Below are positions 4,837 to 46,516 of a stretch of DNA of 49,297 bases, piece by piece (the stretch's first letter is position 1; every line of letters starts with the position of its first letter). A model generated the notes under the pieces. The model searched no databases and was not told the DNA's origin. It saw nothing but the letters and a program-made list of their open reading frames with translations. The position numbers were made by a program, and so were the translations under genes. Source of the DNA: Minisyncoccia bacterium. Its GTDB lineage: Bacteria; Patescibacteriota; Minisyncoccia; 2-02-FULL-40-12; IGHO2-01-FULL-4-A. The stretch lies in assembly GCA_050015375.1 (NCBI GenBank), contig JBEKBN010000007.1, positions 1 to 49,297 on the forward strand, read 5' to 3'.

Positions 4837-6031
4837 TAAAAATTATGTCATTGGTTTGGTCATCATCGCGGTTCTAGTCGGATTCGCCGGCGGTTTTTAT
4901 TACCAGCAATCGAAGATAATATTGCCGGTTAACATTCCGGTTCTTAATCAAACCATCGGCAAACCGCAAGGTGTGGATTTCAGCATGTTCTGGGACACAT
5001 GGAATTTAATTCATCAGAAATATGTTGATAGCGGGAATCTCAACACCCAAACCATGATCTACGGCGCCATAGATGGCATGGTCAAATCAGTCGGCGATCC
5101 TTATACCGTATTTTTTCAACCTGCGGAGTCGAAAGCATTTGCCGAAGACATCAATGGTTCGTTTTCCGGTATCGGTATCGAGATCGGCATCCGCAACGAT
5201 CTATTGACCGTCATCGCGCCCATCAACGGCACGCCGGCCGACAAGGCGGGAATAATGTCGGGCGATGTCATCTCCAAGGTCGGCGACAAGACAACTGATG
5301 GCATGACGACCGATGATGCCGTTAATCTGATCCGAGGCGCGAAGGGAACGCCGGTGAAATTGACGATCGTCCGCGGCGAGCAGAAAACAGTCAAAGAATT
5401 CACCATCATCCGCGACACTATCAAAACGCCGACTGTTTCCTGGAAATTGATCAACGGGAACATTGCCTATGTCCAATTGTATGTTTTTGATAGCAATGTT
5501 GACGCCGATTTCCAAAAAGCGGCCGACGAGATCGTTAAATCAAAAGCCGACCGGATAATCCTTGATGTCAGAAATAATCCCGGTGGGTTGCTTGATTCTT
5601 CAGTGGATATCGCCAGTTATTTCATGGACCCGAATTTGATCGTTGTCAGAGAAAAGTTCGTTGACGGCCATGAAGAGGACTATCGTTCGCAAGCTAATGG
5701 TTTGTTGAAAAAATATCCGTTGATAATCATCACCAACCAAGGTTCGGCATCGGCATCCGAGATATTGACCGGCGCCATCAAAGACAACCGCCATGCGATC
5801 ATTGTCGGTGAAAAGACATTCGGAAAAGGCGTGGTTCAGGAAGTTGATCCGCTTGCCGGCGGCGCGTCGGTCAAGATAACTATTGCCAAGTGGTATACGC
5901 CCAGCGGTGTTTCCATCAATACCGATGGTATCACGCCTGACGTTCCGGTCACTCGAACCGAGGATGACATCAACGCCAATAAAGATCCGCAATTGGACAA
6001 GGCGGAGGAGTTGATACAGAATTTAAAATAA
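4826..6031 (+). CDS. S41 family C-terminal processing peptidase with PDZ domain
   Basis: GIGIEIG..PINGTPADKAGIMSGDVISKV (PDZ), ILDVRNNPGGLL, NQGSASASEILTGAIKD..GEKTFGKG. Overlaps the GT2 gene by 11 nt. Confidence 0.9.
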   Translation: MLNNKNYVIGLVIIAVLVGFAGGFYYQQSKIILPVNIPVLNQTIGKPQGVDFSMFWDTWNLIHQKYVDSGNLNTQTMIYGAIDGMVKSVGDPYTVFFQPAESKAFAEDINGSFSGIGIEIGIRNDLLTVIAPINGTPADKAGIMSGDVISKVGDKTTDGMTTDDAVNLIRGAKGTPVKLTIVRGEQKTVKEFTIIRDTIKTPTVSWKLINGNIAYVQLYVFDSNVDADFQKAADEIVKSKADRIILDVRNNPGGLLDSSVDIASYFMDPNLIVVREKFVDGHEEDYRSQANGLLKKYPLIIITNQGSASASEILTGAIKDNRHAIIVGEKTFGKGVVQEVDPLAGGASVKITIAKWYTPSGVSINTDGITPDVPVTRTEDDINANKDPQLDKAEELIQNLK

Positions 6032-6034
6032 GCA

Positions 6035-6250
6035 AATGTCCGAGAGAGCGAGTGTAATCACGATGCTCGATTGGAAACAGTTGTTTACCCAGCCCTATCT
6101 GGAATCATAGTTATATGTTTCAGATAGATTGAAGACGCAGTCGCCTTACGGTTCTAGTAGTATGTAAGATCAAACTGTGAGCCCAGATAGGGCTGGGTCA
6201 TGAATTGTTTCCTGTTCGCCGCGATATTAATCTAGCTCACAGACAATTCT
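6035..6250 (+). repeat. type-C rod-like intercistronic cassette, copy C1 (expanded apical part)
   Basis: Starts AATGTCCGAGAGAGCGAG 3 nt after the ctp stop and ends CTAGCTCACAGACAATTCT directly before the rplI ATG. Inner inverted repeats are GGAAACAG/AATTGTTTCC and acccagccctatctgg (6087-6102)/ccagatagggctgggt (6183-6198). Confidence 0.75.
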
Positions 6251-6697
6251 ATGAAAGTCATTTTCCTCAAAAATATTAAAAACGTTGCCCAGATCGGGGA
6301 CATTAAAGAAGTGGCCGACGGTTACGCCCGAAATTTTTTATTGAAAAATGGCGTGGCCAAAGTAGCGACGGCCGATTCGGCGAAACAAGCCGAAACATTG
6401 AAAATATTGCGCGTTGAATTCGACGTCAAAACCAAGGAGAAGGGGATAGAACTTGCCAAAAAAATGGAAAATGCCGTTATAGAGATAAACGGCGACGCCA
6501 ACGAGCAAGGTCATCTTTACGGTTCGATCGATGCCAAAAGGATCGCCGACAAGATCAACAACAAATATCATCTTGGCATTTCGGAAGACAACATAAATTT
6601 GCCCCAGCATCTCAAAGCAACAGGAGAGCATGAAGTCGAAATAGAGTTCCACCCCGAAGTCAAAACAAAAATGAAAGTTATTGTGACCTCTGTCTGA
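6251..6697 (+). CDS. rplI: 50S ribosomal protein L9
   Basis: MKVIFLKNIKNVAQIGDIKEVADGYARNFLLKNGVA is the canonical L9 N-terminus. Confidence 0.95.
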   Translation: MKVIFLKNIKNVAQIGDIKEVADGYARNFLLKNGVAKVATADSAKQAETLKILRVEFDVKTKEKGIELAKKMENAVIEINGDANEQGHLYGSIDAKRIADKINNKYHLGISEDNINLPQHLKATGEHEVEIEFHPEVKTKMKVIVTSV

Positions 6698-7639: not shown

Positions 7640-7848
7640 GGCTAATCCCAAGCGAGTCTCCTCAATCCCTGCGAACCCCGGTTGCTTCGGGCACGCTCAA
7701 AAGAGTGGATTGCACGGTTTGCGAGCAATATAATGGATAAAACACTGCGAGCAAAATCCACGCTTTTGAGCGAACAAGAAATCTCGCTGGGATTTCGAGT
7801 AGTGACCCAAAGGGACCGAGGGTGAGCCTGGTTGGGGATTGAGGGGGC
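7640..7848 (+). repeat. type-A structured repeat (GCACGG junction, TATAAT loop, TCGCTGGG-loop hairpin)
   Basis: Outer arms cctcaatccc (7660-7669)/gggattgagg (7835-7844). Helix cgctcaaaagagtggatt/aatccacgcttttgagcg. GCACGG at 7712-7717, TATAAT at 7729-7734, TCGCTGGG at 7784-7791. Ends 3 nt from the rpmA stop. Confidence 0.8.
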
Positions 7849-12265: not shown

Positions 12266-13686
12266 TCCAATTTTTTTATCGCTGTTTTTATTCTTTTTAT
12301 GGCTTCTTCTTTTCCGATGACAAATAAAATTTCCAGTGGATCGGCTGAATATTTTTCTCCGCTCAATGCCACTCGCAACGGCCAATAGACCGCTCCCCTG
12401 TCGCCGTGAAATATTTCCTCGGCTATGTTGTCCAAAATGTTTTTTGTTGTTTCTTTGTCGGTTTCGAGATCTTCTAGCTCTTCAAGTATCTTTTCTAATG
12501 CTTTTTTCGCCCCACTTTTATCGGACTTCTTCCAAGTCAACAATTCCGTTTCGTATTCCGGCGCTTTGAAAAAGTAGTGATAATCCCCTACCTGATCCAG
12601 ATACTCAAGTCGCTCGCGAAAAATGGGAGCCATTTTCATAATTAATTCGTCATCAACGATCCCAAAATGTTTTTTAACGAATGGCAAAACAAGTTTGCAG
12701 ATGCCGGCATCATTTTCCATCTTTAAATATTGGGAATTGAGCCAGTTTAATTTTTTAATATCAAAAACCGCGCCGGATTTGTGGATTTTTTCCAGTTTGA
12801 ATTGTTCAATGATCTCGTTCTTGGTCAGCATTTCTTTTGTCGAATCATCCGGCGTCCAGCCAAGAAGCGCCAGAAAGTTCACCAAAGCGTCCGGTAAATA
12901 ACCAAGAGCGCGATATTCGGCCACCGAAGTCACGCCGTCGCGTTTAGACATTTTCGAACGGTCTGTTCCGAGAATCAGCGGCAAATGAGCAAATTTTGCC
13001 GGTGTCCAACTAAGCGTTTCATAAATTAAAATCTGTTTGGGCGTGTTAGCAATATGATCCTCGCCACGGATGACATGGCTGATTTCCATCATATGGTCGT
13101 CAATTACGACGGCAAAGTTATACAACGGCTCGTTGATATTTTTGGCAATGCTGAAATCCCCGAGCAATTTTTCCTCGAATTCTATTTTCCCCTTGATAAT
13201 ATCTTCAAAAACGATTTTTCTGCTTGAATTGGTATCAACCTTTAATCGAATTATCCCTTCCCCGTGATTCATGATTCGTGATTCATGATTCTTGTGCTCG
13301 CACATATGTCTTGGCGGTTCTTTTTTCTCCATCTGTTCTTTCTGCTCCGCTTCTAGTTCTTCTTTCGTGTGGTAACACCAAAACGCCTTGTCTTCGTCCA
13401 TGAGTTTCTGGATGTATTTCGTATAATATTTTGTCCGCTCGCTTTGGTGGTAGAGCTCGTCCCATTTCAAACCAAGCCATTCAAAGCCCTCGATGATGTC
13501 TTTCTCGTATTCTTTTGTCGAGCGTTCGGTGTCGGTGTCTTCAATTCTGAGAATGTATTGCCCACCCGACATGTGTCGCGCGAAAAGCCAGTTGAAAAGC
13601 GCCGTTCGCGCCGTGCCGATATGCAAAAAACCAGTAGGACTTGGCGCCATCCGAACTCGAATCTTCTCAATTTTGACTTTGGTCAT
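12262..13686 (-). CDS. gltX: glutamate--tRNA ligase
   Basis: RMAPSPTGFLHIGTARTALFNWLFA (HIGH) and KMSKRDG (KMSKS). Confidence 0.95.
   Translation of the reverse strand: MTKVKIEKIRVRMAPSPTGFLHIGTARTALFNWLFARHMSGGQYILRIEDTDTERSTKEYEKDIIEGFEWLGLKWDELYHQSERTKYYTKYIQKLMDEDKAFWCYHTKEELEAEQKEQMEKKEPPRHMCEHKNHESRIMNHGEGIIRLKVDTNSSRKIVFEDIIKGKIEFEEKLLGDFSIAKNINEPLYNFAVVIDDHMMEISHVIRGEDHIANTPKQILIYETLSWTPAKFAHLPLILGTDRSKMSKRDGVTSVAEYRALGYLPDALVNFLALLGWTPDDSTKEMLTKNEIIEQFKLEKIHKSGAVFDIKKLNWLNSQYLKMENDAGICKLVLPFVKKHFGIVDDELIMKMAPIFRERLEYLDQVGDYHYFFKAPEYETELLTWKKSDKSGAKKALEKILEELEDLETDKETTKNILDNIAEEIFHGDRGAVYWPLRVALSGEKYSADPLEILFVIGKEEAIKRIKTAIKKLE
13266..13293 (+). repeat. GATTCNT heptamer tract (4 units) inside gltX
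   Basis: gattcat gattcgt gattcat gattctt, read on the coding (minus) strand as KNHESRIMNH. Confidence 0.8.
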
Positions 13687-16729: not shown

Positions 16730-17600
16730 CGGTAAAATTATTTTTTTCGGCACATCTGAATTCGCCGTGCCGGCGCTGGAAGCGTTTTTTAACGCTGGCT
16801 ATGAAATTGGCGCCGTTATCACCACGCCCGATGAACCGGTCGGACGAAAACAAATTTTAACGCCTTCACCGGTTAAGTTTTGCGCCGAAAAACTAGGATT
16901 AAAAATTTTACAACCCCAAAAATTAGATTCCGAATTTTTAAAAATTCTTCAAACTACCAACCACAAACTACCAACTACTCTCGGTATCGTCGCCTCCTAC
17001 GGCAAAATAATTCCCAAAGAAATCATTGATTCGTTTCCGCTTGGCATCCTCAATATTCATCCGTCTCTTTTGCCGAAATATCGCGGGCCGTCGCCGATCC
17101 AGACCCAGATTTTGAACGGCGAGACGGAAATTGGAGTGACGATAATCAAAATTGACGAACTGGTGGATCACGGACCAATTGTCGCTGAACAAGAATCAAG
17201 AATCATGAATCATGAATTGTTTGAAGATGCGCAAAATAAATTATCCCGAATCGGAACCAACCTCCTGGTCAAAATATTGCCCGATTATATTTCCGGAAAA
17301 ATAAAACCGATTGAACAAAATCACGATCTGGCATCCTTCACAAAAAAGACATCCAAAGAAGATGGCAAAATCGACTGGAACAAACCGGCTGAACAAATTT
17401 ATGATCAATTTCGGGCTTTTCACAAATGGCCGGGAGTTTGGACGATTTGGAAAAACAAAATTTTGAAGATCACGGATCTGCGCGTTCAAAACGGCAAGAT
17501 TGAGATCCTCCGTCTTCAACTCGAAGGCGGAAAAGAGATGTCTTTGAAAGAATTTGTCGCCGGCCACAAAGATTTTATTGTCGGCAAACTCGGCCGGTGA
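16719..17600 (+). CDS. fmt: methionyl-tRNA formyltransferase
   Basis: IIFFGTSEFAVP..., NIHPSLLPKYRGPSPIQ. Overlaps def as in the usual def-fmt operon. Confidence 0.95.
   Translation: MKSNGKIIFFGTSEFAVPALEAFFNAGYEIGAVITTPDEPVGRKQILTPSPVKFCAEKLGLKILQPQKLDSEFLKILQTTNHKLPTTLGIVASYGKIIPKEIIDSFPLGILNIHPSLLPKYRGPSPIQTQILNGETEIGVTIIKIDELVDHGPIVAEQESRIMNHELFEDAQNKLSRIGTNLLVKILPDYISGKIKPIEQNHDLASFTKKTSKEDGKIDWNKPAEQIYDQFRAFHKWPGVWTIWKNKILKITDLRVQNGKIEILRLQLEGGKEMSLKEFVAGHKDFIVGKLGR
17191..17218 (-). repeat. heptamer tract (4 units, inverse orientation) inside fmt
   Basis: aagaatc aagaatc atgaatc atgaatt, read in frame as QESRIMNHEL. Confidence 0.8.
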
Positions 17601-22352: not shown

Positions 22353-22556
22353 AGTAAGCTGGCGGTTGTTGTCTTGAGGGCGCTCATTTCTGTGAGCCCG
22401 AAGGCTTGGAGGGCGTGATTGCATGGCCTGGCAACATGAGAAAATGGTAAAATATTTCCTGCCATTTTCTCGTGTTGCCAGAATCCACAGAAATGAGCGA
22501 GCCGGAATTCTCGCTGGGAATTCCGGCGTCCCGAGAGATAATAGCTGCCAGCTAAA
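22353..22556 (+). repeat. type-A structured repeat filling the dnaK-dnaJ gap
   Basis: Outer arms agctggc/gccagct. Helix cgctcatttctgtg/cacagaaatgagcg. GCATGG at 22421-22426. Hairpin cctggcaacatgagaaaatgg/ccattttctcgtgttgccag. TCGCTGGG at 22511-22518, closed by ggaattc/gaattcc. Confidence 0.8.
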
Positions 22557-24448: not shown

Positions 24449-24458
24449 GATGATTTAT

Positions 24459-24622
24459 AAGCGAGCGGATGTTATTTCTAGGGCGCTCATTTCTGTGCGA
24501 TTGCACGGTTGGCGAGCAGTATAATGTCGGCGTAAGCCACTGCGAGCCAAATCCACAGAAATGAGCGAGTCGATTTCCTCGCTGGGGAAATTGACATCCC
24601 ATGAAATAACATCAGCGAGCTT
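24459..24622 (+). repeat. type-A structured repeat filling the grpE-dnaK gap
   Basis: Arms aagcgagcggatgttatttc/gaaataacatcagcgagctt. GCACGG at 24503-24508, TATAAT at 24520-24525, TCGCTGGG at 24579-24586. Confidence 0.8.
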
Positions 24623-24627
24623 GTTAA

Positions 24628-25155
24628 TTATCTGATTATTTTCACTCTCGCCGGCCTGATGACTTTTCCGTGCATCGTGTAGCCGGCTCTGATCTCTTCA
24701 ATTTTGCTTGCCCCGTTTGAACTCGAAGAATTTCCAATGGGGTTCCGGTTTTCTTCGGTACTTATCGCTTCATGCAATTCCGGATCAAATTTTTCTCCTT
24801 CGACCTTTATTTTCTCAACTCCGTGTTTTTTCAATAATTCGCTGAACTTTTTCAAAACCTGATTCAGACCAATATTTTCCGACGAATGTTTTGCCGTGAT
24901 CTCCAGATCATCAACCACGTCCAGTATTTCGATCAGCAACGCCTCGTTGGCAAATTTCGCGAATTCTTCCAGCGTTTTGGTTTCGTCTTTTTTGTAATTC
25001 AGAAAATCCGCCCGTTCGCGTTTCCAATTATTCAAATACTCCTCGGCTTTCGCTTCTGCTTCTTCCAATTTCTTTTTCAATAAAACCGAATCAATTTGCT
25101 CCAAAATCTCGTCCTTCCCCAATTGGTTCTGATTTTGTTTTTGTTCTTGGGCCAT
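24628..25155 (-). CDS. grpE: nucleotide exchange factor GrpE
   Basis: Coiled-coil N-terminus, ..FDPELHEAIS.., and position between hrcA and dnaK. Confidence 0.93.
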   Translation of the reverse strand: MAQEQKQNQNQLGKDEILEQIDSVLLKKKLEEAEAKAEEYLNNWKRERADFLNYKKDETKTLEEFAKFANEALLIEILDVVDDLEITAKHSSENIGLNQVLKKFSELLKKHGVEKIKVEGEKFDPELHEAISTEENRNPIGNSSSSNGASKIEEIRAGYTMHGKVIRPARVKIIR

Positions 25156-31395: not shown

Positions 31396-31543
31396 AGCTC
31401 GCCAATATGGCTTTTGCGGACTTAGGAAATCCCAGCGAGATTTCCGTCATCCGGTTGTCGGATGCCGTTGTCGTTTTTTGATTACAAAAACCGAACCGTG
31501 CCAACGGCACCGACAACGGCCGCCCGAGCCATATTGGTGAGCT
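31396..31543 (-). repeat. type-A structured repeat (family sense on minus strand)
   Basis: Arms agctcgccaatatgg/ccatattggtgagct. CCCAGCGA at 31431-31438 and CCGTGC at 31496-31501. The reverse complement closely matches 42121-42225. Confidence 0.75.
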
Positions 31544-32833: not shown

Positions 32834-32910
32834 AAAGACCTCCTTTTCAAGATTCTGTTGTCAACTAATATAATCACATCCACATCCATCCGTCAACATT
32901 GTGGAAGGTG

Positions 32911-33135
32911 TATTTTTGACTTTCAATAATAATCCGGCGACTAGGCGAGGCGATTGTCTTTCTGGGCACGCTCAAAAGAGTGGATTGCATGGTTTGCGAG
33001 CAGTATAATGGACAAGACACTGCGAGCAAAATCCACGCTTTTGAGCGAACGAGAAATCTCGCTGGGATTTCGCGTGGTGACAAGAGAGATAATCGCCGAA
33101 GCTAGCCGGAGATTAAAAATGGAAAGTCAAAAATA
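32911..33135 (+). repeat. type-A structured repeat downstream of rplU
   Basis: Outer arms tatttttgactttc (32911-32924)/gaaagtcaaaaata (33122-33135) and ggcgattgtctt/gagataatcgcc. The core is about 94% identical to 7690-7810. GCATGG at 32987-32992, TATAAT at 33004-33009, TCGCTGGG at 33059-33066. Confidence 0.8.
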
Positions 33136-33140
33136 CCCGC

Positions 33141-34289: not shown

Positions 34290-34528
34290 ATCGACTCGCC
34301 GTTCGTGGCGTCTGTTGTCTCGAGGGCGCTCATTTCTGTGAGCCCGAAACTCCGGAATCTTGAGGATGAGGGCGTGATTGCATGGTCTGGAAACATCGGA
34401 AAGTTGTATAATATTTTCCTACAACTTTCCGATGTTTCCAGAATCCACAGAAATGAGCGAGACGATTTCCTCGCTGGGAAAATCGACGTCCCGAGAGGCA
34501 AAAGACGCCACGGCCATGCGAGAAATGC
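34290..34528 (+). repeat. type-A structured repeat downstream of murF
   Basis: Arms cgtggcgtct (34304-34313)/agacgccacg (34503-34512). GCATGG at 34380-34385. Hairpin ctggaaacatcggaaagttgta/tacaactttccgatgtttccag with a TATAAT loop (34407-34412). TCGCTGGG at 34471-34478. Confidence 0.8.
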
Positions 34529-38070: not shown

Positions 38071-38961
38071 TTAATTCTTTATTACAACCCTCAATTTCGC
38101 GCTTCTTGAATTCGGATTTTGCTTTTTTTCTTCAAGACCGGCAACAACCGGTTTTTTCACGAGCAATGCTACTTCTCCTTTTTTCGCCGCTTCCCGGAAA
38201 ATATTTTTAACGATTCTATCCTCCAGCGAATGAAACGATATCACCGCCACTCTGCCGCCGATCCGAACCGTTTCGATCGCTTTTTTTATGCCGTTCTCGA
38301 CATTTTCCAGCTCGTGATTGACCACGATCCTCAATGCCTGGAAAGTTCTGGTCGCGAAATGAATGTGTCCGGTTCTATATCTGAACGGCACGCCTCTTTT
38401 TATCGCCTCTACCAGTTGAAATGTCGTCTTTATCGGCCGCTGTCTTCTCTCGGCTATGATCTCTCTGGCGATTCCCCGCGAATATCTTTCCTCGCCGTAT
38501 TTGTAGATCAAGTTCGCAATATCTTCTTCGTTATAATTATTTAAAATATCTGCCGCCGTCTCACCTTCTTCATTGTTAAATCTCATGTCGAGAGCTTCGT
38601 CTTTTGAAAATGTGAATCCCCTTTCGCTGTCGGTCAATTGCCATGTGGACATGCCCAGATCGAATAAAATTCCGTCTGTGCTCGTAAAACCGTGACTATT
38701 GGCAATTTTCTCAATATTCACATAGTTATCATTAACCGCGATCAATCTATCTCCAAATTCATGATTCGTGATTCTTGATTCAAGATTCTTGTAAATTTCC
38801 GGGTCCCACTCGATTCCGAGCAACCCGCCGCCCGGCTTTATTTTTTCTAATATCGCCAACGCGTGTCCGCCGCCGTTGATGGTCGCGTCAATAAACTTCT
38901 GTCCGGGCTTAGGATCAAGATATTCAATAACTTCGTTTAAAAGAACCGGCGTATGGATCAT
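38071..38961 (-). CDS. rsmH: 16S rRNA (cytosine1402-N4)-methyltransferase
   Basis: HTPVLLNEVIEYL..DATINGGGHA, SFHSLEDRIVK. Confidence 0.93.
   Translation of the reverse strand: MIHTPVLLNEVIEYLDPKPGQKFIDATINGGGHALAILEKIKPGGGLLGIEWDPEIYKNLESRITNHEFGDRLIAVNDNYVNIEKIANSHGFTSTDGILFDLGMSTWQLTDSERGFTFSKDEALDMRFNNEEGETAADILNNYNEEDIANLIYKYGEERYSRGIAREIIAERRQRPIKTTFQLVEAIKRGVPFRYRTGHIHFATRTFQALRIVVNHELENVENGIKKAIETVRIGGRVAVISFHSLEDRIVKNIFREAAKKGEVALLVKKPVVAGLEEKKQNPNSRSAKLRVVIKN
38756..38790 (+). repeat. GATTCNN heptamer tract (5 units) inside rsmH
   Basis: aattcat gattcgt gattctt gattcaa gattctt, read on the coding strand as NLESRITNHEF. Confidence 0.8.
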
Positions 38962-39392
38962 ATTATTCCCAATTCTCCCAATTTCTCCGCAATTCTGTCT
39001 CCATTTTTCTCAAGATTTGCTTTATAAGCCGCCCATTTTTCTTCATCCCAGATCTCTAATCGGCTATTCAAACCGGCCACTATCACCGATTTCTTTAAAC
39101 CGGCAAAATCTCTCAAATAATCCGGCACCAGCACCCGGCCAAGCTGATCCATCTCGACTTCCGAGGCGCCGGCCAACAATAATCTCACAAATCCTCTTGT
39201 GTCTTGCTGGCCCAACGGCAATTTGCCCAGTTTTTCAGCCAGAATTTCCCACTCTTTCATTGGAAACAGAAAAAGGCAGCTATCTAACCCTCTGGTCAGA
39301 ACCGCCTTCTCGCCGATCTCCTTCCTGAACCTCGCCGGAACCGATAAGCGTTTCTTTGAATCAATCGTATGATGATGCTCGCCAAGTAACAT
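38958..39392 (-). CDS. mraZ: transcriptional regulator MraZ
   Basis: MLLGEHHHTIDSKKRLSVPARFR and a second SpoVT/AbrB-like repeat. Its stop overlaps the rsmH start. Confidence 0.93.
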   Translation of the reverse strand: MLLGEHHHTIDSKKRLSVPARFRKEIGEKAVLTRGLDSCLFLFPMKEWEILAEKLGKLPLGQQDTRGFVRLLLAGASEVEMDQLGRVLVPDYLRDFAGLKKSVIVAGLNSRLEIWDEEKWAAYKANLEKNGDRIAEKLGELGII

Positions 39393-39517
39393 GCGAAATT
39401 GTCCAAGAGCGAAGCGATTGGGTAACAATTTCAGCACCCAGCACATAACGAGTTATGTGCTGGGTAAGAATTTGTTTCCGTGCTCGTTTCGCTACGCTCA
39501 ACTGCGCTCGGACAAAT
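39393..39517 (-). repeat. type-C rod-like cassette, copy C2, abutting the mraZ ATG
   Basis: In gene sense: ATTTGTCCGAGCGCAGTTGAGCG..CACGGAAACAAATTC..ACCCAGCACATAACTCGTTATGTGCTGGGT..TGGACAATTTCGC-ATG. Confidence 0.75.
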
Positions 39518-39680
39518 GTCTTAGTAACTGATAGCTAACAGCCAGTAGTCCCGATGGCTTTCGCCATCGCAGATCCGCGATTTCGTTTTTGCGAAATCGG
39601 GAGATTTAATGGCAAAGAACAATTTTTTTGAAAAATCGCTACTCGCTGTTAACTATCAATTACCCGGCAATTTTTATTAG

Positions 39681-41678: not shown

Positions 41679-41945
41679 TGCTCGTTTCTCCTTTCAAGGT
41701 ACTGTTTGACTGCATCAAGCCAACATGACTTGATTTCCTGCTATCCTATCATAATAGGAGTTCGGTGTCAAGAGCAACAAAAAATCACCATCTCTGGTAT
41801 TTCTTATTTCTTAACTCTTTGGATTAAAAATTTTTCTTCCCCCAAAATGCGGAATCGGGAATTCGTTTTTACCCCCAAAATTGAATACAAATTAGTCGCC
41901 GAGCGAAGCGAGGCGAACCTTTCAAACTTGCGAATTCCTACAAGG

Positions 41946-42017
41946 TGCGCCTTGTAGGGATTGAACCTACGGCCTCTTCGATGTGAACGAAGCGCTCTGC
42001 CACTGAGCTAAAGGCGC
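41946..42017 (-). tRNA. tRNA-Val (anticodon CAC)
   Basis: GCGCCTT-TA-GCTCAGTGGCAGAGC-G-CTTCG-TTCACAT-CGAAG-AGGCC-GTAGGTTCAATCCCTAC-AAGGCGC-A. Confidence 0.85.
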
Positions 42018-42077: not shown

Positions 42078-42270
42078 GAAAGTGAGCTTGTGAATCTCTG
42101 CGAACCGGGTTGTTTTCAGGGGCCGTTGTCGGTGCCGTTGGCATGGTTCGATTATTGTAATCAATTAATCGACAACGGCAACCGACAACCGGATGACGGA
42201 AATCTCGCTGGGATTTCCTAAGTCCCCGGAAAGCAATCCGGTGAGCCTGGTCCGGGATTCACAAGCGAGC
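42078..42270 (+). repeat. type-A structured repeat
   Basis: Arms gcttgtgaatc (42086-42096)/gattcacaagc (42256-42266). Helix ccgttgtcggtgccgttg/caacggcaaccgacaaccgg. GCATGG at 42141-42146 and TCGCTGGG at 42205-42212. Ends 2 nt from the stop of 42273..42746. Confidence 0.8.
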
Positions 42271-42272
42271 AA

Positions 42273-42746
42273 TTAGAGTCCGAGTTTGTTTATCAGCTTC
42301 TCATGCGGGCCCTCGAACAGCACGCGGATGAACCGGTCAAACATGGCGAAGCGATATTGGAACTCGTCTTTTTCCATGATCGAAAATTTTATTTCCTTCC
42401 CCACTTCCGCTTCCAGCGATTTCAAAAACGGCCTTAATTTTCGGTTTTCAATGTCATCGCCGACAATGAGTAGGTCCACCACCGTCGGGTCGGGGTTCTC
42501 TTTGTTGATGAAGATCCCGGCTACGATCGCCAATTTAATTCTCCCCAGTTTATTTATTCTCTCGATCATATTGTTTTTCTCCGCCGGTGATGATTTCAAT
42601 AACAGATCGCGAAGTTCGTAAAGAAATTCAAAAGAATTGTTGATAACGTATTTCGCTCCCCGAGACGCGTGACTGTTGGCTAAAACTGCCGGAATTTTTC
42701 TTCGGCGGCGGCTAGGATGTTTAACTTTTCTATTTTTCTTTTTCAT
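42273..42746 (-). CDS. distal part of a split wHTH regulator (wing + C-terminal domain)
   Basis: A Lys/Arg-rich start, then AKYVINNSFEFLYELRDLLLKS and a C-terminal alpha/beta region. The ATG sits directly after cassette C3. Confidence 0.6.
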   Translation of the reverse strand: MKKKNRKVKHPSRRRRKIPAVLANSHASRGAKYVINNSFEFLYELRDLLLKSSPAEKNNMIERINKLGRIKLAIVAGIFINKENPDPTVVDLLIVGDDIENRKLRPFLKSLEAEVGKEIKFSIMEKDEFQYRFAMFDRFIRVLFEGPHEKLINKLGL

Positions 42747-42886
42747 AGAATTGTCCGCGAGCTAGACGAAGTCGCAGCGAGCGGGAAACAATTCATGACC
42801 CGCCTAAATATGCGAAGCATAATTTTTGGCGGGTAAATAACTGTTTCCGTGCTCGGCTCACTTCGTTTGCCTGCGCTCGGACATTT
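42747..42886 (-). repeat. type-C rod-like cassette, copy C3, separating two halves of one regulator gene
   Basis: In gene sense: TAA-AT-AAATGTCCGAGCGCAGGC..CACGGAAACAGTT..ACCCGCC..GGCGGGT..GAATTGTTTCCCGCTCGCTGCG..CTAGCTCGCGGACAATTCT-ATG. Confidence 0.8.
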
Positions 42887-42888
42887 AT

Positions 42889-43077
42889 TTATTTCTGTTT
42901 TATCAACCCGATACCGACAAGTTTCTTTATTTCTCTTTTCACGACTTCGGGATCCTCTTGAACATGATCAGCCAGTTCTCGGACATTAAAACTGGCCGGC
43001 GCATTCCGAAAAATATACTTGAGTATTTTGACCCGCAGGTTCGAACCCAGCAGTTCCTCAAGGATTTTTTTTGACAT
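42889..43077 (-). CDS. proximal part of a split wHTH regulator (ArsR-like helix-turn-helix, 62 aa)
   Basis: LLGSNLRVKILKYIFRN..FNVRELADHVQEDPEVVKREIKKLVGIGLI ends right after the recognition helix. Confidence 0.6.
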   Translation of the reverse strand: MSKKILEELLGSNLRVKILKYIFRNAPASFNVRELADHVQEDPEVVKREIKKLVGIGLIKQK

Positions 43078-43148
43078 GTGGGTAAGGGATTGATTACAAT
43101 GATAATAGTGACTACGACAAACTTATTAAATAAGCGGGATAAAGTCAA

Positions 43149-43226
43149 CCCCGTTAGAAAGTGTTACTTACTTAGACAAATTATGTGGACGAGTACAAAC
43201 TACTTAAGCAGGACTTTCTAACGGGG
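43149..43226 (+). repeat. type-D hairpin (CCCCGTTAGAAAGT/ACTTTCTAACGGGG)
   Basis: 14-bp perfect arms with a 50-nt loop. Both ends are flanked by TCAA. Confidence 0.7.
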
Positions 43227-43233
43227 TCAACAG

Positions 43234-45330: not shown

Positions 45331-45504
45331 GAGACGAAATAGCCTTCCAAGCACTCTCGAAGTTGTGGATTGCACGGTCTGGGAAATAAAAAAGCGGTAT
45401 AATGTTTCATAACCGCTTTTTTATTTCCCAGAATCCACAAACTTCGAGAGAACGCAGAATCCTCGCTGGGGATTCAAGTGGTGCTGGGAAGGCCATTTCG
45501 TCTC
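45331..45504 (+). repeat. type-A structured repeat between convergent genes
   Basis: Arms gagacgaaatagccttcc/ggaaggccatttcgtctc. Helix ctctcgaagttgtggatt/aatccacaaacttcgagag. GCACGG at 45372-45377, TATAAT at 45398-45403, TCGCTGGG at 45463-45470. Confidence 0.8.
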
Positions 45505-45509
45505 AAATT

Positions 45510-45890
45510 TTATTTGAGTTCAACAGTTCCACCCGCCTCTTCCAATTTTTTCTTCAATTCCTCGGCTTCGTCTTTCTTGGCGCCTTCTTTAACTACGACC
45601 GGAACGGCATCGGTCATATCCTTAGCTTCCTTGAGCCCTTTGCCGGTCGCTTCCCGGATGACTTTTATTACCTGTATCTTCGATTGGCCGGCCTCTTTCA
45701 AAATGACATTGAAAGAATCCTTTTCCTCCACAACACCTTCGCCGGCATCGCTCGCCGTAGCTCCAGCGGCGGCGGGCGCTGATATCATCGCCGCCGAGAT
45801 GCCGAACTTTTCCTCAATGGCTTTGACCAATTCGTTTAGTTCAACGACGGTCATCTTCTCGATTTGTTTGATTATTTCTTCGTTTGACAT
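45510..45890 (-). CDS. rplL: 50S ribosomal protein L7/L12
   Basis: [30 protein letters not shown]...[16 protein letters not shown]. Confidence 0.95.
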
Positions 45891-46037
45891 GCTAGAATTG
45901 TCTGCGAGCTAGCTTGTAAAGCGCAGCGAGTAGATAACAATTCTTGCACCCAGCACATATTTCGTGTTGCGAAATATGTGCTGGGTAAGCGACTGTTTCC
46001 GTGCTCGCTTCGCTTTGCTCAACTGCGCTCGGACATT
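45891..46037 (-). repeat. type-C rod-like cassette, copy C4, between rplJ and rplL
   Basis: In gene sense: AATGTCCGAGCGCAGTTGA(rplJ stop)GCAAAGCGAAGCGAGCACGGAAACAG..ACCCAGCACATATTTCGCAACACGAAATATGTGCTGGGT..GAATTGTTATC..CTAGCTCGCAGACAATTCTAGC-ATG. Confidence 0.8.
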
Positions 46038-46516
46038 CGACTTATTTGACCCAAGACATTCGCCAAACTCGACAGCGGATATTTCAGCAATCCCAGAAAT
46101 CTGGCGATCATCACATCTTTGGTTGGTAATTTGGCAAATTCGATGAGGTCTTTGTTGTCCAGTATTTTATCACCGAATATCGCGCTGAATAATTTCAACG
46201 CCGGGTTCTTCCGGGAAAATTCATAGACCGACTTGGCGGCGGCGGATACTTCTCCGTAACCAAAAACCACGCCCAGAGAGCCGTCATAGCCGAAAATATC
46301 TACTTTTCCATCCAGCGCCTTGTCAAGCAGTGTCTTTTTTTCGACGGCATATTCTGACTCGACGGCCCGCAAACTTCGTTTCAACGCCTGCATGCTTTTG
46401 ACGTTCAAACCCTTTTCCCCCGCTCTTGAAAATGAGGTAAAAACTGTCAATTTCGACTTCGCCAATTTCTCTTTCAACTTGGCTAATTCCTTCTTTTTTT
46501 GTTCGAATGATTTCAT
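46019..46516 (-). CDS. rplJ: 50S ribosomal protein L10
   Basis: MKSFEQKKKELAKLKEKLAKSKLTVFTSF..GLNVKSMQALKRSLR. The last 7 codons and the stop lie inside cassette C4. Confidence 0.9.
   Translation of the reverse strand: MKSFEQKKKELAKLKEKLAKSKLTVFTSFSRAGEKGLNVKSMQALKRSLRAVESEYAVEKKTLLDKALDGKVDIFGYDGSLGVVFGYGEVSAAAKSVYEFSRKNPALKLFSAIFGDKILDNKDLIEFAKLPTKDVMIARFLGLLKYPLSSLANVLGQISRMSERS

Follow-up and report, generated by a model that had tools for sequence, protein, structure and literature searches.

Gene fission can leave adjacent, translationally coupled cistrons whose stop and start codons overlap as NTGA or TAATG, and split genes are known from reduced genomes such as that of Nanoarchaeum. 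Small, non-autonomous palindromic repeats form a second well-described kind of element and include the Correia elements of Neisseria, the Rickettsia palindromic elements (RPEs), the REP/BIME sequences, and the PATEs derived from IS200/IS605. RPEs insert in frame and carry no stop codons. Here, we describe a locus at which a split gene and a small palindromic repeat occur together. It lies in a stretch of 49,297 nucleotides (nt), hereafter the window, from a Minisyncoccia bacterium, an ultra-small organism found in groundwater. Two open reading frames (ORFs) on the minus strand, ORF-N and ORF-C, encode the two halves of a regulator with a winged helix-turn-helix (wHTH) domain, and a structured repeat, cassette C3, fills the space between them (Table 1).

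We conclude, with a probability of roughly 75%, that ORF-N and ORF-C are a conserved two-gene split regulator, probably translationally coupled, and that the cassette was inserted later into an already existing junction. The split is ancient and shared, it is located in the wing loop, both ORFs are constrained, and the cassette is secondary. Neither gene fission into coupled cistrons nor the small palindromic repeat is new in kind. What is new is a clade-conserved fission inside the wing of a wHTH domain, and a repeat family that has a built-in stop and start in a fixed register, forms covarying hairpins, and sits inside core operons. Our literature search found nothing that describes the regulator family, its split, or the cassette.

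Distribution and position of the split

A search with ORF-N and ORF-C joined into one query found 762 proteins, of which we classed the best 120. Seventy-five of these 120 are single polypeptides of ~186 to 206 amino acids (aa) that span both halves in the same domain order. The other 45 have no helix-turn-helix (HTH); they begin with a short or long tail, usually rich in lysine and arginine (K/R), and continue into the same C-terminal domain. Among the 45 proteins nearest to the C-terminal domain of the window (>70% identity), all are of this tail type except three fused proteins, P0002, P0003, and P0004. The initial annotation described the homologs as single polypeptides of about 200 aa, which is true of the 75 fused matches but not of the window's own clade.

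The neighborhoods of the tail-type genes contain a small ORF upstream, often skipped by gene callers. For example, in the public gene calls of four relatives (L001, L004, L086, and L087), the ~63-aa ORF-N is often omitted or cut to 46 aa, and ORF-C is labeled hypothetical. The regulator is systematically under-annotated and has thus been missed in many Patescibacteria genomes.

At the DNA level, we classed the loci of 80 species representatives of the Genome Taxonomy Database (GTDB), mostly Ca. Yanofskybacteria and other Paceibacteria, using phmmer on stop-to-stop ORFs. The gene is split in 52 of the 80 and fused in 21, while 7 are undecided owing to contig ends, N-masking (L053), or excess divergence. 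Split loci are broken at the same residue: ORF-N (62 to 83 aa, median 63) ends after the recognition helix and wing strand beta2 with a GL[IV]K.KK-type sequence. In 49 of the 52 split representatives, there is no element of any kind at the junction. Stop and start form ATGA in 8 loci and TAATG or TGATG in 10, and most others are separated by gaps of +1 to +26 nt. Frame offsets of 0, +1, and +2 are all seen, and TAA, TAG, and TGA are all used as stops. Two separate, adjacent genes are the normal state of the homologs in this group, the very finding that the initial annotation had named as a refutation of its reading. The earlier claim that a cassette split the gene does not survive this comparison, since representatives are broken at the same residue without a cassette, as are the nearest relatives of the window.

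Among these relatives, L087 (85% identity in the C-terminal domain) has an ORF-N (MSKYILETLIGSSLKVKILKYIFRNAPASFNIRELATHVQDKPEAVKKEIKKLVAIGLIKQKR) that ends at TAAtcATG, from which ORF-C starts as MGKSKKNRK (junction ...AAAAGATAAtcATG...). P0006 (87% identity) is also free of the cassette, and its 63-aa ORF overlaps ORF-C by 4 nt. L102 is split with a TAATG junction, and the 63-aa ORF-Ns of L001 (MSKNVLETLF...GLIKTKK) and L004 end in TGATG and TAATG junctions, respectively. Cassette C3 is absent from the junction in L087, L102, L001, and L004. It is present in L086, a 99% identical contig from another sample that begins inside the same cassette; the insertion is thus real and recent.

Only three split loci have long spacers, of 142 nt in the window, 147 nt in L039, and 127 nt in L079. 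The last two hold palindromic elements unrelated to the cassette (L039, 2693-2840; L079, 2690-2826), which exactly fill the same stop-to-ATG gap. In the Yanofskybacteria group, palindromic elements seem to favor stop/start junctions or to be tolerated there.

In the window, ORF-N ends as ...LVGIGLIKQK-TAA (...KREIKKLVGIGLIKQK-TAA; stop at 42889-42891), and ORF-C begins as MKKKNRKVKHPSRRRRKIPAVLANSHASRGAKYVINNSFEFLYELRDLLLKS..., also given as MKKKNRKVKHPSRRRRK...AKYVINNSFEFLYELRDLLLKS. Counted from the first base of the TAA (42891), the first base of the ATG (42746) comes 145 nt later, so that the reading frames are offset by 1. An AAA codon directly precedes the ORF-N stop, and another directly follows the ORF-C ATG. 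Re-reading of the sequence confirmed all of these features and the ORF coordinates as first annotated; the cassette between stop and ATG is also present, with a measured length of 142 nt instead of the 140 nt reported. The ORF-C frame is closed upstream by a TAG 5 codons 5' of the ATG. The position of the regulator locus is conserved, between a divergent gene of ~700 aa (693 aa in the window) and the tRNA/mraZ-dcw cluster.

Profile searches against Pfam and NCBIfam match ORF-N to HVO_A0114 (26.7 bits; cut-off 27.6), EarA (21 bits; cut-off 22), HTH_20 (17.9; cut-off 27), and HTH_5 (15.5; cut-off 22). All scores are below the curated cut-offs, and the matched positions are mutually consistent. 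The matches cover profile positions 1 to 50 of 51 in HTH_20, 3 to 46 of 47 in HTH_5, and 21 to 67 of 84 in HVO_A0114, and all finish at the recognition helix. Precomputed Pfam matches to PF07381 and PF01022 exist for some fused homologs. ORF-N had been read as an ArsR-like HTH that stops right after its recognition helix; the place of the stop is borne out, and the ArsR-like label is qualified by scores that all stay below the cut-offs. ORF-C has no family profile match.

We modeled the fused homolog P0002 with AlphaFold2 (AF2) from 75 sequences, with a mean predicted local distance difference test score (pLDDT) of 81.5. The model has helices at residues 13 to 24, 32 to 39, and 43 to 55, the last being the recognition helix. 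These are followed by beta2 (59 to 62, IKQL), a low-confidence loop (63 to 74), and beta3 (75 to 78, RYVV), with an alpha/beta domain completing the chain. In a Foldseek search, the N-terminal part matched the winged helices of MarR, MepR, SlyA, and IclR (E about 3e-3, probability 1.00). When the window is mapped onto P0002 by alignment with the fused P0002 and P0003, beta2 ends ORF-N (IKQK) and beta3 falls in ORF-C (KYVI, K32-I35, nt 42642-42653). In this model, the wHTH domain is cut in the wing loop, between its two wing strands. The model and alignment also bear out the idea that ORF-C carries the missing wing strand after a basic linker. Modeled alone, ORF-C has a pLDDT <50 for residues 1 to 28, and KYVI forms no strand in isolation.

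For the C-terminal domain, no meaningful match came from searching PDB sequences with a profile of the fused family. Foldseek on ORF-C alone gave no significant match, the best being the MntA nucleotidyltransferase antitoxin at E = 0.38. On this value, a degenerate nucleotidyltransferase-like fold for ORF-C is unsupported.

The regulator resembles wHTH proteins of the MarR/ArsR type in its order of three helices (H1-H2-H3) and a beta-hairpin, as modeled for the fused homolog. It differs from them in its sub-cut-off profile scores, in a C-terminal domain that has no significant match, and in a wHTH that is distributed over two polypeptides. As in other coupled cistrons derived from split genes, the halves are adjacent, on the same strand, in the order of the fused orthologs, with overlaps of -4 or -1 nt, and both conserved. 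Unlike in usual split genes, the break lies inside a small DNA-binding domain, between wing strands and not between domains. Also unusual are the disordered basic tail of 12 to 100 aa that usually goes with the break and the alternation of fused and split forms among close relatives. A winged-helix domain can thus be stably encoded on two polypeptides across a clade of ultra-small bacteria, as a natural split-protein system.

Purifying selection acts on both halves. In comparisons of the window with 11 split relatives, the proportion of nonsynonymous differences (pN) is 0.13 to 0.35 in ORF-N and 0.10 to 0.21 in the C-terminal domain, while the proportion of synonymous differences (pS) is 0.72 to 0.96, which is saturated. 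Since its pN is well below the saturated pS, ORF-N is not a decaying remnant.

Fused and split states are interspersed on a neighbor-joining tree of the 127-aa C-terminal domain. Fitch parsimony requires at least 12 changes, a rough count given that the tree is short and noisy, and the outgroups and root are fused. The window's own clade is mixed: the window, P0006, L087, L001, and L021 are split, and P0002, P0003, and P0004 are fused, with 79 to 85% identity to the window in the C-terminal domain. We read the DNA of P0002 and P0003 across the junction. The wing loops of fused forms are short and non-basic; most split forms carry K/R-rich tails of 12 to 100 aa, with a K+R fraction of 0.35 to 0.56 in most ORF-Cs. 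By the Rosetta-stone argument, this alternation among close relatives indicates that the two halves act as one unit, although it is silent on how each transition happened. The family is a clean case of a gene repeatedly split and fused at a single structural loop.

The cassette family, its register, and its structure

The cassette family has 4 copies in the window and at least 14 more in 12 metagenome contigs from several projects. The contigs were recovered by exact pattern search, and nhmmer models located 18 right arms and 19 left arms. Cassettes are 120 to 270 nt long, multicopy, and non-coding, and they occupy non-orthologous sites. In 17 of the 18 copies with a right arm, that arm (...GACAATT) is followed within 3 to 7 nt by the ATG of a real gene, always in the same orientation relative to it (17/18). 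The downstream genes are rpoB, rpoC, rplL, rplI, rplP, rpsC, rpsL, rpsR, rpmB, ssb, mraZ, a comM-like gene, and ORF-C. Cassettes are found inside ribosomal-protein and rpoBC operons, in intercistronic positions at rplJ/rplL, rpoB/rpoC, rpsC/rplP, and others.

Of the 19 copies with a left arm, 11 have a TAA 9 nt before GTCCGAG, and 5 others have it at -10 or -8. This TAA is kept even where no credible upstream ORF exists (copy B and L092/L093/L100). Because the TAA is present without an upstream ORF and the right end abuts an ATG, both codons are part of the element consensus, TAA[AG]Tnnn-T GTCCGAG ... GACAATT(TCGC)ATG. Thus, the window's present stop and start codons are probably cassette-borne. 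As a description, the initial annotation's statement that the cassette supplies a stop and a restart was apt, and a TAA at the left and an ATG at the right are a trait of the whole family. ORF-N is 62 aa in the window and 63 aa in the nearest relatives; the loss of one residue fits a cassette that replaced an old ...AGA TAA tc ATG junction with its own TAA ... ATG. No target-site duplication or flanking direct repeat is recognizable around the cassette copies. The family shows that repeats of these compact genomes are tailored to the exact space between a stop codon and a start codon.

The junction at copy A reads AAA-TAA ... ATG-AAA. At copy D, rplJ (encoding L10) reads 8 codons into the cassette (...GQISRMSERS; 46019-46047, minus strand) and stops at an internal TGA (46019-46021), while the copy's own TAA at -10 lies out of the rplJ frame. 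The cassette has thus remodeled the C-terminus of a ribosomal protein.

Cassette C3 has a minimum free energy of -60.7 kcal/mol (z = -6.55), and none of 200 shuffled sequences was as stable. Comparison of the copies indicates a conserved architecture of three hairpins, namely two covarying arm hairpins and a variable central module. Across 13 distinct copies, 95.0% of cells in the arm-local hairpins are paired, and 12 of 25 pairs have changed on both sides. The left-arm hairpin contributes 11 pairs, 4 of them changed on both sides, with 92 to 100% pairing per helix; in the right-arm hairpin (helices 4 and 5), 8 of 14 pairs have changed on both sides and 93 to 95% of cells are paired. Double-change cells number 43, compared with 12.9 ± 3.2 after shuffling (0 of 500 shuffles reached 43) and at most 4 in controls with the partner slid by 1 to 3 columns. 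The central module, which is exchanged as a unit from copy to copy, takes different forms (CCCAGC../..GCTGGG, CCGAGC../..GCTCGG), and some copies have long inserts in it.

Single copies thermodynamically prefer one long inter-arm hairpin (-49 kcal/mol, versus -31 kcal/mol for the arm-only construct). We rejected this hairpin as the conserved structure: it shows no covariation, with 76.5% pairing versus 74.7% in shuffled data and 13 double-change cells versus 9.0. The sense strand folds more stably than the antisense strand in 12 of 16 copies (mean difference -2.9 kcal/mol), a bias that hints at a structure formed in RNA without settling the choice between RNA and DNA. Against Rfam, neither the whole window (gathering scores) nor the cassette (E <= 5) gave anything beyond two tRNAs and chance-level microRNA matches.

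The cassette shares many traits with Correia elements, RPEs, REPs, and PATEs: it is small, multicopy, and non-coding, it forms hairpins and has partly complementary ends, and it lies in operons, co-oriented with transcription. It differs from these repeats in its near-fixed TAA/ATG register, its strict orientation, and its three local covarying hairpins without a long stem of terminal inverted repeats. The inter-arm stem without covariation and the lack of a target-site duplication further separate it from elements of the Correia type and from miniature inverted-repeat transposable elements (MITEs). Its end hairpins, strict orientation, and lack of a target-site duplication would fit a PATE or REP derived from IS200/IS605. 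The parallel first drawn with RPEs holds in part. Like RPEs, the cassette is tolerated where it touches coding sequence, as where rplJ runs into copy D. Unlike RPEs, it carries a stop, begins with TAA, and is not translated as an in-frame insertion; only copy D adds 8 codons and a stop to rplJ.

Table 1. Coordinates of the regulator locus, its cassette, and the other cassette copies in the window.
Feature	Position (nt)	Strand	Description
ORF-N	43077..42889	-	62 aa; helices H1-H3 of the winged helix-turn-helix and wing strand beta2 (IKQK at the C-terminus)
ORF-C	42746..42273	-	157 aa; disordered basic tail (residues 1-~30), wing strand beta3, conserved C-terminal alpha/beta domain
Cassette C3	42747..42888	-	142 nt between stop and ATG; 42744-42891 including TAA and ATG
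5' (left-arm) hairpin	42846..42881	-	TCCGAGCGCAGGC...GCCGAGCACGGA; RNAalifold on 13 copies
Central hairpin	42799..42833	-	CCCGCC...GGCGGG; read directly from the sequences
3' (right-arm) hairpin	42748..42794	-	GAATTGTTTCCCGC...GCGGACAATTC; 3' strand ends 1 nt before the ATG
Promoter-like site	43102..43129	-	TTAATA-16-TATTAT, 5' of ORF-N; consensus scan only, weak evidence
Cassette copy A	6029..6253	+	TAA of a 401-aa peptidase-like ORF, left arm from 6038, long central insert, rplI-like ATG at 6251
Cassette copy B	39390..39523	-	Directly before the mraZ ATG (39392-39390); TAA at -10, no credible upstream ORF ending there
Cassette copy D	45888..46044	-	Between rplJ and rplL; rplL ATG at 45890-45888

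Proposed arrangement and rival explanations

We propose that the regulator comprises a wHTH domain and a C-terminal domain of ~125 aa, and that it is conserved across the Patescibacteria (Candidate Phyla Radiation, CPR). Within a large clade that consists mostly of Ca. Yanofskybacteria and other Paceibacteria, it is normally encoded by two adjacent cistrons whose stop and start overlap or nearly touch. ORF-N and ORF-C would be co-transcribed as a two-cistron operon, which we infer from a consensus scan that found no promoter- or terminator-like consensus inside cassette C3 on the coding strand. To read the cassette's GACAAT as a weak -10 box would be speculation. The two products would be made separately, and translational coupling is the most likely route in the relatives; NTGA-type overlaps and very short spacers mark coupled pairs, for which stop/start distances of -4 and -1 nt are typical (PMC12548453). 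The two polypeptides would then reassemble, with beta3 of ORF-C pairing with beta2 of ORF-N and the usually basic ORF-C tail standing in for the wing loop. Such a physical association is suggested by the modeled fold topology and by the alternation of fusion and fission. In the lineage of the window, the 142-nt, three-hairpin cassette was later inserted exactly at the old stop/start junction, probably replacing it with its own TAA and ATG.

Some observations weigh against this arrangement. P0006, P0013, and P0014 have short, weakly basic ORF-C tails, which leaves the role of the tail uncertain. The short C-domain tree resolves the number and direction of fissions and fusions poorly. In the window itself, 142 nt of structured RNA separates the stop from the start, and classical short-range coupling should be weak there.

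Shine-Dalgarno-like motifs are rare in the window: they precede 7 of its 44 long ORFs, with starts crudely called as the first ATG. Many genes have a TATAAT-like box 5 to 8 nt before the ATG (e.g., ATGs at 2411, 17613, 20369(-), 25909(-), 26035, 27905, and 35806(-)), a pattern that suggests that leaderless mRNAs may be widespread in this organism. It is speculation that the mRNA is processed at the cassette, or that the base of the cassette's structure holds the stop near the start. The cassette provides a testable handle on the expression of internal cistrons where Shine-Dalgarno use is low.

The reverse order of events, in which the cassette inserted into an intact gene of ~200 aa and so caused the split into two polypeptides, is improbable. 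In its favor are the family-wide TAA at -9 and adjoining ATG, the existence of the fused close relatives P0002 and P0003, and the unrelated palindromic elements that fill the same junction in L039 and L079. It is largely refuted by the element-free break at the same residue in nearly all split representatives and in the nearest relatives, and by the alignment of the window's ORF-C start, M-KKKNRK, with the MGKSKKNRK of the cassette-free L087. An ancient insertion followed by clean loss in dozens of lineages is conceivable, but no footprint speaks for it. Even less probable is that ORF-N is a decaying remnant and that ORF-C, with its basic tail as a nucleic-acid-binding module, is the sole functional product. 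The K/R-rich tail of most ORF-Cs could bind DNA or RNA alone, and ORF-N is often missed by gene callers. However, ORF-N is intact (62 to 83 aa) in 58 of 58 split loci and selectively constrained, its stop is tightly juxtaposed to the ORF-C start, and every case of an ORF-C without an ORF-N was traced to a contig end, N-masking, or divergence.

The initial annotation also raised the rejoining of the two ORFs into one polypeptide, by RNA excision or by translational bypass between the AAA codons. Phage T4 gene 60 is the known case of programmed bypass, and two features are shared with it: the codon before the stop recurs past the gap, and a stable structure sets in 6 nt after the stop. Copy A has the same matched codons. 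Unlike in gene 60, the gap is 145 nt and not 50 nt, it is absent from relatives, and the same cassette separates unrelated genes. Copy A stands between a peptidase-like gene and rplI, where a fusion would be senseless, copy D separates rplJ from rplL, and other copies lack matched codons. Furthermore, relatives are split without a gap, in all three frame offsets and with in-frame stops, so a joined product is evidently not required, and Rfam gave no match to a self-splicing or known RNA family. Rejoining is thus unneeded, contradicted by the frame offsets and by the cassette's place between unrelated genes, and exceedingly unlikely. Programmed frameshifting at A-runs was also rejected as a general mechanism, given that A-rich runs precede some ATGA junctions but not many others and that offsets of 0, +1, and +2 occur. 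An artifact, whether a frameshift error in an A-rich tract or a mis-assembled cassette, would be favored by the A-rich junction region and by the use of metagenome assemblies. Its probability is practically negligible: the split is found in more than 50 independent assemblies with varied junctions that include in-frame stops, the identical cassette occupies the same place in an independent sample, and the family recurs in 12 further contigs.

Beyond the conserved two-gene regulator with its later insertion, a broader idea can be put forward, although we regard it as doubtful. The cassette family might be a portable "intercistronic junction", a mobile module of three hairpins with its own stop and start in fixed register, one that inserts into packed operons or permissive gene loops without killing either side and may aid downstream expression. 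In its strongest form, the family would be an engine of gene fissions. If the idea were true, the cassette could act through re-initiation, with stop and start brought together, or through RNA processing that releases a leaderless downstream mRNA. In the strongest form, cassettes and the subsequent loss of their palindromes would have created stop/start scars and fissions such as the split wHTH in Paceibacteria.

Neighboring and other repeats in the window

The divergent region that separates ORF-N from the 693-aa gene contains a 28-nt inverted repeat (ACCCCGTTAGAAAGT...ACTTTCTAACGGGGT; 43148-43227), which directly precedes a TTGACT box. Its arms are 82% complementary and separated by a 24-nt spacer. 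It may be an operator site of the regulator or one more repeat element.

On the other side of the regulator, a different repeat (42121-42246) occupies the space between the ORF-C stop and tRNA-Val(cac) (41944-42017, minus strand), with an inverted copy ~10.6 kb away at 31397-31521. The arms of the pair are complementary over 80 nt (85%) and 44 nt (93%), and the repeat represents a second cassette type flanking the same gene pair. A third repeat family is represented by three or more full copies (22355-22550, 24449-24632, and 34301-34510); its units measure ~150 to 200 nt and contain palindromes (e.g., CGGAATTCTCGCTGGGAATTCCG). Fragments of this family (D1, D5, D7, and D12) lie near the regulator locus at 42197-42226 and 45455-45484.

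Elsewhere, a pair of 118-nt direct repeats with 94% identity is found at 7689-7806 and 32964-33081, with a partial copy at 45351-45384 (families D3, D9, and I2). The copy at 32964-33081 is embedded in a 60-nt inverted repeat at 32910-33136. Short arrays of GATTCAT/GAATCAT heptamer-like units occur on both strands at 1256-1286, 13261-13295, 17188-17227, and 38744-38788 (families D4, I10, I11, and I15).

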